The translations under genes were made by a program, and so were the position numbers. A stretch of 64,000 nucleotides of DNA from a virus (lineage: Duplodnaviria; Caudoviricetes): IMG/VR virus record IMGVR_UViG_3300028832_000131, positions 10,105-74,104 of that record; one strand, given 5' to 3'. Positions 273 through 48,659 of the stretch are shown here, piece by piece. Numbering within the stretch: the stretch's first letter is position 1; every line of letters starts with the position of its first letter. The notes beneath the pieces were generated by a model, which was not told the origin of the DNA, ran no database searches, and saw only the letters and a program-made list of their open reading frames with translations.

Positions 273-482
273 GTGGCAAAACAATTAAGAGAACTTAAAT
301 ATCCAAACTTATTAGCAGAAATGAGAAGACATGGTGAAACACAAGATGATTTAGGTGAATTACTTGGATTATGTAGAACCACAATTAATTTCAAATTATC
401 TGGTAAATATGATTGGACGATAGGTGAAATTGAAATAATCTGCAATCATTACGAAAAAGATTATTATGAATTATTCAAATAA
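273..482 (+). CDS. XRE/Cro-like HTH regulator
   Basis: 69 aa, TQDDLGELLGLCRTTINFKLSG HTH; GTG start with AGGAG RBS; homologue at 47603. Confidence 0.8.
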   Translation: MAKQLRELKYPNLLAEMRRHGETQDDLGELLGLCRTTINFKLSGKYDWTIGEIEIICNHYEKDYYELFK

Positions 483-547
483 AAAAAGAACTCTAGGCGA
501 CCTGAGTTCTATAAAGACATTGCGTGAGCAGTATTAACTGGTCACAC
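481..547 (-). ncRNA. Putative antisense (countertranscript/OOP-like) RNA upstream of rep
   Basis: Minus-strand promoter at 554-582, stem 487-493/504-510, U7 tract at 481-487; same layout in phage B. Ends approximate. Confidence 0.6.
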
Positions 548-553
548 AATAAA

Positions 554-582
554 ATCTTAACATAGAATCTCTAGGAAGTCAA
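554..582 (-). promoter_or_regulatory. Antisense SigA promoter next to the rep RBS
   Basis: TTGACT-17-TAAGAT with TG extension on the minus strand; B counterpart is TTGACT-17-TATAAT. Confidence 0.65.
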
Positions 583-598
583 TAAGGAAAGGAGAGAT

Positions 599-1303
599 AT
601 GGATAAAGGCTTTATATTCCTACATAGAAAGTTTCTAAAATGGGAATGGTATAGCAATGTTAATGACCGTTTAGTATTTATACATTGTTTGTTAAGTGCT
701 AATTGGGAAGATGGGTGGTTTGAAGGTAAAAAGATACCTCGTGGTAGTTTTGCTACGAGTTATAAAAATCTCGCTAAAGAGATAGGTATTTCGGTGCAAT
801 CTCTACGAACTTCGTTAGAACACCTAAAATCAACAAACAATATAACACACGAAACTAATAGACAATTCTCAATAATAACAATAAATAATTACAACAAATA
901 CCAGTTAGATAACACACAAGTTAACAAACGATTAACAAACGACCAACAAACGACTAACAACAATATAATAAATAATAATAAATTAATAAATAAAGAAAGT
1001 ATATCTAAAGATATACCAAAGAAAGTTTTTAGTAAGCCAACTCTCCAAGAAATTAGTGATTATTGTTTAGAGAGAAACAATGGTATAAATCCTAATAAGT
1101 TTTATGATTTTTACGAAAGTAAGAACTGGATGATAGGTAAAAACAAAATGAAAGATTGGAAGGCTTGTGTTAGAACTTGGGAGCAACACGAAAGTAAACA
1201 AGATAATTCTAAACTACCTGATTGGTGGGATAAAGATTTTAAGGAAAGGGAAAGAACTGATGAGGATGAACGAGAATTACAAGAACTTATTAGAGGTTAT
1301 TAA
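599..1303 (+). CDS. Phage replication initiator (lambda O/DnaD-like architecture)
   Basis: N-terminal GFIFLHRKF..WEWY and wHTH, internal iteron linker, C-terminal FYDFYESKNW..DWKACVRTWE domain. Confidence 0.85.
   Translation: MDKGFIFLHRKFLKWEWYSNVNDRLVFIHCLLSANWEDGWFEGKKIPRGSFATSYKNLAKEIGISVQSLRTSLEHLKSTNNITHETNRQFSIITINNYNKYQLDNTQVNKRLTNDQQTTNNNIINNNKLINKESISKDIPKKVFSKPTLQEISDYCLERNNGINPNKFYDFYESKNWMIGKNKMKDWKACVRTWEQHESKQDNSKLPDWWDKDFKERERTDEDERELQELIRGY
910..1016 (+). repeat. Replication origin inside rep: 11-bp iterons, AT-rich tract, palindrome
   Basis: (T/C)(T/C)AACAAACGA at 921, 932, 943 and partial at 954; AT-rich 962-994; GTATATCT-AA-AGATATAC at 999-1016. Confidence 0.75.
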
Positions 1304-11396: not shown

Positions 11397-12065
11397 TTAA
11401 TACAAATCCCAATCTAAATCCTCCTGTAACTTTGCTAGAATCTCTTTATAATCTTTAGTTCCATATCTAGCATAACATAATTTTATTTTTCTCTCGAACG
11501 ATACTAATGGAACATTTAATATCGAACAAGCCGCTCTCATACCTGTATTAGTATCTACCATATATTGTAATACCTTAATAAAGTTTTCACGAGTAGACCT
11601 ATCGGAATATGCTCTACCTAGTTTCTTCCCACTTTCACGTACCGCTCTTAATCCTTCTTTAGTTCTTTCACTTATAATGTCTCGTTCAAATTGTCCTAGT
11701 ACCGAGAAAATACCTAGTAATAAACTTGTGGTAGAGTTTGGTTGTTCCCCAGCCCTTAACTCGAATCCTTCTTTAAAAATAATTACGTTAATTTTTCTTT
11801 TTTGTACTAAATCAGTTATTAATTCTAATGTTCTAATAACTCCACCACGAGAAAGACGAGATAAACTTTCTACTATTAAGGTATCACCCTCCACCATAGT
11901 AGCCATAAGTTCATCAAATACAGGACGATTGATTTTTGTTCCTGTAAACTTTTCTTCCACGTAAGTACAATTATTATTATTTATATAGCCTCTATCCTTA
12001 AATATTTGTATTTGTCTATTAAACTCTTGTGAATCTCTTGAAACTCTTATATAACAATAAATCAT
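11397..12065 (-). CDS. Small serine recombinase (resolvase/invertase)
   Basis: YIRVS catalytic motif, EEKFTG, GDTLIVESLSRLSR, ERDIISERTKEGL, C-terminal HTH; no large-integrase domains. Confidence 0.93.
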   Translation of the reverse strand: MIYCYIRVSRDSQEFNRQIQIFKDRGYINNNNCTYVEEKFTGTKINRPVFDELMATMVEGDTLIVESLSRLSRGGVIRTLELITDLVQKRKINVIIFKEGFELRAGEQPNSTTSLLLGIFSVLGQFERDIISERTKEGLRAVRESGKKLGRAYSDRSTRENFIKVLQYMVDTNTGMRAACSILNVPLVSFERKIKLCYARYGTKDYKEILAKLQEDLDWDLY

Positions 12066-21552: not shown

Positions 21553-22065
21553 ATGGATAAATCGGGTTATATTGTCGATAGTGACGGTGTAATAGTTCGT
21601 AATGTAGGCAATATAGATAATTTATTTGAGGTTGAGGCGGGAGATAGAATACTTCGCAAGAAGAACTTAGAAGGAGTAGATAAGTTAGTCGAGATTAAGA
21701 TGCGATTTGCGAAGGTCAATTATGTAGTGTTTGGAGATATAATTGATAAATACCCCGTGTTTGCTAAAATGATTAAATTAATTGGATATTATAGTGGTCG
21801 GTTAATGTATAAAAATGGTGTTAGTGTTAATCGAAGAAACTTATCTAAGGCTTGTGGTGTTTCTAATGCTACTATTAATCGTCAATTAAGAGGTTTAATT
21901 AATGATGACGTTATTAAGGTTGTGAGAGAGGGTCGTGAGGCTGCTTATTTCGTCAATCCTTATGTCGTTCATTTAGGAAAAAAAGTTAATTTATCTTTAT
22001 ATGAGTTGTTTAAAGATACGATTTATCGAGAAAATTACGAGAAGACGTTGAGGAGTGATAAATAA
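21553..22065 (+). CDS. RepL-like winged-helix protein (Firmicutes plasmid replication family)
   Basis: LSKACGVSNATINRQLRGL HTH followed by YFVNPYVVHLG...LYELF. Confidence 0.6.
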   Translation: MDKSGYIVDSDGVIVRNVGNIDNLFEVEAGDRILRKKNLEGVDKLVEIKMRFAKVNYVVFGDIIDKYPVFAKMIKLIGYYSGRLMYKNGVSVNRRNLSKACGVSNATINRQLRGLINDDVIKVVREGREAAYFVNPYVVHLGKKVNLSLYELFKDTIYRENYEKTLRSDK

Positions 22066-46985: not shown

Positions 46986-47008
46986 GAGCATTAAACTCTT
47001 ATTTTTCT
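46981..47008. terminator. Bidirectional terminator
   Basis: AAATAAGAG...CTCTTATTT flanked by A and T runs. Confidence 0.65.
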
Positions 47009-47458: not shown

Positions 47459-47602
47459 TGACTTGTAAATAGATAGAGGGACAAGATAATTTTTACCTTT
47501 TTTTGCTATATGTAGTACTTAACATAATATATATTACAACAATTTAGCCGAAATAGGTAAAACACTTATTTCGGTTTTTTTGTATCTATAGAAAGGAGAA
47601 AC

Positions 47603-47806
47603 ATGAAAGAATACAAATACCTTAACTTATTTTATGAGATGAGGAAAAACAAAGAGTTTTTAAAGGACGTAGCAGAGTTGTTAGACGTAACACCACAAAC
47701 AATAAGTGCTAAGTTAGCGGGAGAACATGATTGGACAATAGGTGAGATCGAAACACTATGCGAACATTACAATAAAGACTATTACGAATTATTTAAAAAA
47801 GATTAA
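47603..47806 (+). CDS. XRE/Cro-like HTH regulator (B)
   Basis: Homologue of 273-482 (DWTIGEIE..C.HY.KDYYELFK). Confidence 0.8.
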   Translation: MKEYKYLNLFYEMRKNKEFLKDVAELLDVTPQTISAKLAGEHDWTIGEIETLCEHYNKDYYELFKKD

Positions 47807-47821
47807 TTATGAATTGTGGGT

Positions 47822-47887
47822 ATAAAAAAAGACCTCTAGGCGATGGCTGAGGTCACGTAAATAATACGCACAAAAAAATTACTTACA
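47822..47887 (-). ncRNA. Putative antisense RNA upstream of rep (B)
   Basis: Promoter 47894-47922, stem GACCTC/GAGGTC, U7 tract. Ends approximate. Confidence 0.62.
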
Positions 47888-47893
47888 AACTAT

Positions 47894-47922
47894 ATTATAC
47901 AACAAATGAAATTATAAGTCAA
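47894..47922 (-). promoter_or_regulatory. Antisense SigA promoter (B)
   Basis: TTGACT-17-TATAAT. Confidence 0.8.
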
Positions 47923-47939: not shown

Positions 47940-48659
47940 ATGGGTTATATACAAATTGACAGAAATATTAGTAATAATTGGATATGGCAAAAAACACCGT
48001 TTTCTTATGGACAGGCTTGGATAGATTTATTGTTATTAGCAAATTATAAAGAAAATAAAAGAATAAAAAATAACGAAATAGTTATCTCTAATAGAGGAGA
48101 AGTAAACTTATCAATATTATATTTATCTAATAAATGGGGTTGGGACAGAAAAAAAACAACAAGATTTTTAGAGCTACTAGAGAGAGATAACATGGTGGAA
48201 CTTAACAAATCTAAAAATGGGACAACGATAAGGATAACTAATTACAATATATATCAACAAAATCAAGTAGATACGAAACAAAAAATGGGACAACAAAAGG
48301 ACAACGAATGGGACAACAACTCCCCATATATAAATAAAGAAAACAAAGAAATAAATAATATATATAAAGAAAGTATATCTAAAGATATACCAAAGAAAGT
48401 AGAAACAAAATATTTTGAAAGTTTAAAAGTAAATACATTGTTTAATGAGTTTTTAGAATTACGAAAGAAGATAAAAGCAGTAAATAGTGAAAGAGCTATA
48501 AACACACTAATAAACAAACTTAAAAACTATGATGAAGATACTCAGTACAAGATGATAGAAAATTCTATAGTTAATTCTTGGAAAGACGTGTATGAGCTTA
48601 AAGAACAAAAAAGAAAGGATAATGTTTTAGATACATTAAGGGAAATCTATAATGAGTAA
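47940..48659 (+). CDS. Phage replication initiator (B)
   Basis: GYIQIDRNI..WIW, AWIDLLLLAN; different C-terminal domain from A. Confidence 0.85.
   Translation: MGYIQIDRNISNNWIWQKTPFSYGQAWIDLLLLANYKENKRIKNNEIVISNRGEVNLSILYLSNKWGWDRKKTTRFLELLERDNMVELNKSKNGTTIRITNYNIYQQNQVDTKQKMGQQKDNEWDNNSPYINKENKEINNIYKESISKDIPKKVETKYFESLKVNTLFNEFLELRKKIKAVNSERAINTLINKLKNYDEDTQYKMIENSIVNSWKDVYELKEQKRKDNVLDTLREIYNE
48218..48400 (+). repeat. Origin (B): TGGGACAAC iterons plus the conserved palindrome
   Basis: Copies at 48218, 48286, 48298, 48309; 48365-48400 identical to 991-1026. Confidence 0.72.

Follow-up and report, generated by a model that had tools for sequence, protein, structure and literature searches.

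The spacer between a small regulator gene and the replication initiator gene (rep) of two related phages most probably contains a genuine antisense RNA gene, and we lean towards the view that its product down-regulates rep by RNA pairing, possibly aided by interference. The window analyzed here is a stretch of 64,000 nucleotides, corresponding to bases 10105-74104 of a 74,104-bp IMG/VR virus record. It contains the early regions of two related phages, A, beginning at base 1, and B, beginning near 47,000, which have a common gene order on the plus strand: a helix-turn-helix (HTH) gene, a spacer, the initiator gene, a gene for an Erf annealing protein and an exonuclease gene. The HTH-initiator spacer is 116 or 133 nt long in the two copies. 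A strong SigA-type promoter would face back into it from just before the ribosome-binding site (RBS) of rep, and the spacer would thus encode a cis-encoded antisense RNA. That this RNA is transcribed, what it targets and in which direction it acts are all inferred, the control of rep being suggested by position. The HTH gene and rep are presumably co-transcribed, as they lie on the same strand and the spacer has no plus-strand T-run terminator. The features of the two copies are as follows.

273 to 482, plus strand: small HTH (Cro/XRE-like) gene of copy A, 69 aa (open reading frame list, PHROG transcriptional repressor families)
481 to 510, minus strand: antisense terminator (SL2) of copy A, AGAACUC-AGG-UCG-CCU-A-GAGUUCU then U7 (sequence, fold, compensatory changes in relatives)
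522 to 547, minus strand: 5' stem-loop (SL1) of copy A, beginning at the predicted transcription start at about 547 (folds)
554 to 582, minus strand: antisense promoter of copy A, TTGACT-17-TAAGAT (promoter scan 9/12, TG before the -10)
599 to 1303, plus strand: DnaD-like / O-like replication initiator gene of copy A (PHROG 2514/186/428)
47603 to 47806, plus strand: small HTH gene of copy B, 67 aa (open reading frame list, weak Pfam HTH_26 and HTH_3 matches)
47824 to 47854, minus strand: antisense terminator (SL2) of copy B, GACCUC...GAGGUC then U7 (sequence, folds)
47857 to 47886, minus strand: 5' stem-loop (SL1) of copy B, GUAAGUAAU / AUUAUUUAC (folds, comparison with the relative L226)
47894 to 47922, minus strand: antisense promoter of copy B, TTGACT-17-TATAAT (promoter scan 11/12)
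47940 to 48659, plus strand: DnaD-like / O-like initiator gene of copy B (PHROG 2514/186/678)

The promoter scan found minus-strand promoters before the rep RBS in both copies, exactly where the initial annotation had placed them. In copy A, the -35 is 3 nt from the purine-rich stretch of the rep RBS, which starts at 586 and has its GGAG core at 591-594. The hairpin followed by seven U on the antisense strand, also claimed at the outset, is present in A and B. In plus-strand coordinates, copy A has A7 at 481-487 and then GAACTC...GAGTTC at 488-509, and copy B has A7 at 47824-47830 and then GACCTC...GAGGTC at 47831-47854. The stop codon of the copy A HTH gene falls within the A run that corresponds to the antisense U tail. 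On the plus strand a T run follows neither hairpin, in A or in B; therefore, each terminator is one-directional, leftward. Transcription starting 7 nt past the -10 would give RNAs of 67 nt (A) and 64 nt (B). The minus-strand RNA folds into two stem-loops in each copy, with -23.9 kcal/mol in A (z -5.3) and -15.6 kcal/mol in B (z -3.5), the z-scores being computed on slightly longer stretches of 71 nt (A) and 65 nt (B). SL1 of copy B includes a G-U wobble in its antisense form. The antisense RNA would match the untranslated spacer along its full length and lies wholly inside it, covering no coding sequence. About 37 nt, which include its promoter, separate its 5' end from the rep Shine-Dalgarno (SD) sequence further downstream. 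The A and B RNAs have in common only a 20-nt stretch, made up of the 3' half of SL2 plus the tail. The TAGGCGA that the two hairpins had been reported to share is real; CTAGGCGA occurs only twice within the 64 kb window, once per unit. Promoter matches of 9/12 are found at chance level (8 versus 7.8 expected), and an automated terminator scan flagged neither hairpin, owing to the bulge and the loop size. Because a single 9/12 match is at chance level, the case for the antisense RNA rests on ten distinct versions and on covariation.

Relatives were sought by pattern scans of viral and metagenome collections, by a protein scan guided by an HTH alignment and by look-ups of HTH homologues in public assemblies. 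With those from related metagenomic phage contigs, ten distinct full units were compared: A, B, L024, L028, L073, L221, L224, L226/L227, L234 and L235. The -35 TTGACT and the 17-nt spacing are found in all ten. The -10 is TATAAT in seven versions, TAAGAT in two and TATACT in one, with positions 1, 2 and 6 invariant; these are the most important -10 positions for sigma-70/SigA promoters. Pairwise identity across the ten versions is 100% for the -35 and 85% for the -10 versus 52% for the spacer between the hexamers. In most versions the -35 is 1-4 nt from the purine-rich stretch of the rep RBS. The predicted RNA is 59-69 nt in 10/10 versions, starts at the base of SL1 and, past a short linker, ends with SL2 and U6-8. 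Its 3' end coincides with the HTH stop codon in A-group units and lies 17-27 nt past it in those of the B group. Every full unit keeps UCGCC, the GC-rich motif of the SL2 loop. Thus, as far as sequences can tell, the antisense unit of about 65 nt that had been proposed between the HTH gene and the initiator is conserved in ten versions. A pattern scan of genome contigs gave chance matches only, and an SL1-pattern scan of viral contigs gave, after filtering and among the matches listed, only an unrelated promoter-palindrome family.

The stems of the two hairpins are conserved as structures. GAACTC/GAGTTC and GACCTC/GAGGTC covary between A and B, as the initial annotation had noticed, and compensatory changes extend to other relatives, in which both the promoter and the hairpin are conserved; a lack of this conservation would, on the annotation's own terms, have refuted it. 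Five versions have A-U as the outermost pair of SL2 and L235 has G-C; at the fourth pair, A-U of the A group contrasts with C-G of the B group. In the L028 group, the bulge of SL2 was shifted by three substitutions and a 10-bp stem re-formed. SL1 of A and L221 is unlike the GUAAAUAA-type stem of the other eight versions in sequence, yet it forms a stem in the corresponding position; A and L221 themselves differ on both sides of two of its pairs. We built a covariance model from four versions and searched 29 sources totalling 177 kb. This search across relatives, which had been suggested as a check, matched only at the HTH-rep spacer position and only on the antisense strand. In the model-fitted alignment of eight versions, 90.7% of cells pair, compared with 79.5% in shuffles and 37-49% in slid controls, and eight pairs are changed on both sides, compared with 2.5 +/- 1.1 in shuffles (the observed value was reached in 0/500), although these measures are inflated by the fitting of the alignment to the model structure and by the relatedness of the sequences.

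The two strands are not equivalent. The U run is on the minus strand in every version, the antisense fold is more stable than the sense fold in 9/10 versions, and there are 13 G-U wobbles in the antisense folds versus five in the sense folds. Where SL1 differs between B and L226, between L224 and L073 on the one side and L028 and L024 on the other, and between A and L221, the substitutions leave a G-U pair on the antisense strand, which corresponds to an A-C mismatch on the sense strand. Wobbles, fold stability and U-run orientation together indicate that the minus-strand transcript is probably the molecule under selection. Rfam adds no known family: at the gathering threshold a tRNA is the sole match in the window, at E <= 10 both spacers give only chance matches to unrelated families, and neither countertranscript (ctRNA) nor phage antisense RNA families are matched.

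The antisense unit is an accessory module and is dispensable. L044, L045, L047, L050, L056, L057, L228, L229 and L230 are without the unit despite having a homologous HTH gene, and the initiator of these loci lies 30-35 nt past the HTH stop. L057 shares its rep gene and RBS with B and lacks the unit, and the L057 and B sequences join exactly at the RBS. The statement that this phage group controls initiator expression with an antisense RNA was therefore right about a conserved antisense unit but too broad, since many close relatives, including L057, are without it. The unit also precedes differing initiator genes (L226 versus L227; likewise L024, L073 and L235), and at least four or five different ones are found behind it. 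As like units stand before different initiator genes, the unit belongs to the HTH module. Both deep clades of the HTH tree include full units, beside members without a unit. This scatter implies that the unit has probably been lost or exchanged repeatedly. L225 (665-737) carries a deletion remnant in which the -35 and part of SL2 are present and SL1 and the -10 are gone; L228, its sister lineage by HTH, has no unit. Mini-units are found in L239 (1405-1471), L240 (1405-1470) and L046 (2717-2792), in which nothing is left but an extended -10 (TGnTATAAT) directly followed by a hairpin of 8-9 bp and its U run. They adjoin the HTH stop codon, and their predicted RNA is 32-36 nt. For these three lineages, a promoter/terminator function fits at least as well as RNA pairing. 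Neither direct repeats nor clean insertion boundaries were found between loci with and without the unit, and the differences look like module exchange at the rep RBS.

We propose that the antisense RNA would be an accessory brake on the initiator and the downstream replication and recombination genes of the early mRNA. Pairing within the polycistronic early mRNA would produce a duplex of about 60 bp in the spacer, which a double-strand-specific RNase could cut, as for oop and cII. Such a cut would leave a hairpin at the 3' end of the HTH cistron and a new 5' end on the rep part, which would be open to decay. The near-consensus convergent promoter on the rep RBS DNA may in addition hinder incoming early transcription, as lambda pO does for pR. 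UCGCC in the SL2 loop, GC-rich in an otherwise AT-rich RNA, would be suited to fast loop-loop nucleation. The mini-units point to promoter and terminator as the minimal useful core, and the upkeep of the SL1 stems in full units speaks for a role of the RNA there.

Several classical mechanisms were also considered. When the target region was forced to be unavailable, the predicted accessibility of the SD and the start codon was unchanged in 10/10 versions. An RBS-sequestration switch or a direct translational block is thus unsupported, because accessibility does not change and the RNA is off the rep SD and start codon. Attenuation of the pT181/pIP501 type is unsupported as well, because the plus strand has no hairpin with a U run from the target to the rep RBS. 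A leader peptide and a type I toxin were rejected because neither spacer strand has a conserved small ORF, and an R1-type leader-peptide relay is likewise unsupported. With no overlap with the rep SD, no attenuator and unchanged accessibility, the classical translation and attenuation mechanisms are unsupported. Control of the initiator by the antisense RNA, as the initial annotation formulated it, therefore has to be qualified: the unit is linked to the HTH gene and not to rep, the RBS is left uncovered, and neither an attenuator nor an RBS switch is predicted.

Other readings give the RNA a different role or none. The convergent promoter might act by interference alone, its RNA polymerase being bound at the rep RBS DNA or firing there against the early transcript, with the RNA as a by-product and the terminator merely halting antisense transcription before the HTH gene; we regard this as unlikely. 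L239/L240 and L046, which retain just TGnTATAAT, a hairpin and a U run, agree with it, as does the lack of a predicted RBS change on target blocking; moreover, in lambda, pO affected pR transcription, and the oop RNA level barely affected replication (PMC3985674). However, interference needs neither UCGCC nor SL1, and UCGCC is kept in 10/10 full units and the SL1 stem is preserved via compensatory and wobble changes, with a different stem in A and L221. The RNA might instead pair with the 3' end of the HTH message and alter mRNA stability or events at the termination codon, so that the regulator and not the initiator is tuned, as oop acts on cII. This is consistent with the unit co-travelling with the HTH gene, rep being exchanged just past the AGTCAA-RBS junction (L226 versus L227, L024 and L073), with the A-group U tail overlapping the HTH stop codon and with the action of oop on cII via RNase III (PMC3985674, PMC12197685). 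But oop overlaps cII, whereas the RNA here has no overlap with HTH coding sequence and ends 17-27 nt past the stop in the B group, which makes an action on the upstream gene quite unlikely.

The remaining readings are less probable. The locus may not be an RNA gene at all; the hairpins would then be a stabilizer or processing site of the sense mRNA or protein-bound DNA palindromes, and the promoter-like hexamers a by-product of AT-rich sequence. Hairpins can form on both strands, a 9/12 promoter match is frequent by chance, and an unrelated phage family has a promoter and a GTAAATAAG palindrome before a real gene, suggesting an operator. We nevertheless consider this very unlikely, given that the 17-nt spacing, the whole -35 and -10 positions 1, 2 and 6 never vary around a spacer of 52% identity, that the U run is always on the minus strand with no plus-strand T run after the hairpin, that wobbles and folding energy favour the antisense strand, and that the SL1 type is independent of the HTH recognition helix. 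In particular, SL1 is unlikely to be an operator of the adjacent HTH protein, because its type tracks neither the HTH recognition helix nor the HTH clade. It is highly improbable that the RNA acts in trans or as an immunity RNA, made from a prophage or plasmid and targeting the spacer (types A and B) of incoming related phages or a host message. The A and B RNAs have only 20 nt in common, so that the co-assembled phages would be largely orthogonal, and the loop motif is conserved across types, as such a role would predict; but elsewhere in the window there is no complementary site beyond chance, the best being 11-12 nt (E >= 0.17). Our preferred reading is still a cis-encoded antisense RNA that would act as a brake on rep.

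The layout resembles known control elements, and its similarity to both pMV158 RNAII and lambda oop, which was pointed out initially, is borne out by position (PMC3985674, PMC4485353). As in lambda pO/oop/tO, a leftward promoter lies directly before an initiator gene that holds origin iterons, the corresponding RNA is small (77 nt in lambda and a predicted 59-69 nt in the present units), its intrinsic terminator lying where the small regulator gene upstream ends, and the unit is convergent with the early rightward transcript. The -10 of lambda pO is 2 bp from the O start codon, and pO reduces pR-driven transcription (PMC3985674). Unlike oop, which overlaps the 3' coding part of cII, the phage RNA stays in the untranslated spacer, and it has no sequence similarity to oop. 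The upstream gene is of the Cro/XRE-type HTH class and not cII, the host type differs (SigA-type promoters, AT-rich, probably Bacillota), and the unit is found in only part of the phage group. As in pMV158 CopG/RNAII/RepB, a small repressor gene and rep are in one operon, and the countertranscript, as also in pIP501/pT181-type ctRNAs, is wholly intergenic and has a terminator hairpin and U tail; its region begins just past the repressor stop codon on the sense strand. RNAII of pMV158 is a 48-nt RNA that lies wholly inside the copG-repB intergenic region (PMC4485353). In contrast to the phage RNA, which starts about 37 nt from the SD, the 5' tail of RNAII reaches just upstream of the repB translation signals and blocks translation. 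The phage unit also differs from pIP501/pT181 in being without an attenuator, and from pMV158 in its initiator, which is DnaD/O-like with iterons and not a rolling-circle Rep, and in its regulator, which is of the XRE/Cro-type HTH class and not a ribbon-helix-helix CopG. The antisense unit is thus a new sequence family of a known kind of control element, its putative function being drawn by analogy. If real, it extends the lambda oop / plasmid countertranscript layout to uncultivated phages that probably infect Bacillota. The term 'Gram-positive' is absent from the text of a 2025 review of phage small RNAs (PMC12197685). The unit would not surprise a specialist. Full and stripped-down units permit a test of whether the RNA or the convergent promoter matters, a question still debated for lambda pO/oop.

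The genes on either side of the spacer were characterized further. The copy A HTH protein has 249 homologues and matches Pfam HTH_26/BetR/DUF739. A tandem-repeat search found 11-nt iterons inside both rep genes, TAACAAACGAC x3.5 at 922-960 in copy A and AATGGGACAAC x3.2 at 48284-48319 in copy B, each followed by an AT-rich tract. Iterons and AT-rich tract inside rep are likely the replication origin. Blastn and tblastn searches against cultured phages and plasmids found no close relative. The promoter type, the Shine-Dalgarno sequences and distant HTH matches to Bacillus and Streptococcus phages indicate that the host is probably a member of the Bacillota, and related contigs suggest an origin in rumen or gut samples.

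The whole record (1-74104) contains tail and lysis genes, then the complete A genome and then the early half of B. Two related phages thus seem to be joined in a single contig, by a tandem or concatemer arrangement or through an assembly chimera. Among the proteins scanned in the record, no integrase was seen. The record has a small serine resolvase at 11397-12062 on the minus strand and a RepL-like protein, by a marginal match, at 21553-22062. Since no integrase was seen and a resolvase and a RepL-like gene are present, the phages may persist as plasmids. A speculative extension, which we think rather doubtful, is that leader terminator, HTH gene and antisense RNA form a portable plasmid-style copy-control cassette that serves several unrelated initiators, and that incompatibility or immunity type depends on SL1 and the linker, which are variable, A and B being mutually orthogonal.

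A further hairpin is found in the leader of the HTH gene. In the window, a plus-strand hairpin with a T5-8 run lies upstream of the HTH gene at 215-247 and 47546-47582. Such a leader hairpin and T run were present in 24/24 loci examined that have this HTH gene, with the position shared by L044-L059 and L221-L240. The beginning of the T run precedes the HTH start, or the start of the alignment match, by 18-56 nt (18-40 nt in 23/24). The stem sequences differ but always pair, and CTATAGAAAGGAG usually comes after them. There is no apparent room for a promoter after this hairpin, so the HTH-rep operon appears to be read through the leader terminator, by attenuation or antitermination. A conserved box, ACTTAACATAATATA, lies 20-40 nt upstream of the leader terminator in A and B, at about 194-208 and 47517-47531, and similar boxes are present in L046 and L054. 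The reverse complement of this box appears to resemble the XerD arm and core of Bacillus dif.

The promoter-palindrome arrangement of unrelated phages is seen in L141 (3935-4010) and also in L114, L140, L192 and L202. There, TTGACT-17-TATAAT is followed by the palindrome GTAAATAAG...CTTATTTAC. It precedes a real gene of 133 aa, and more TTGACT promoters are found in tandem upstream. This layout is the same as that of the antisense promoter and SL1, and it may reflect an operator or chance.
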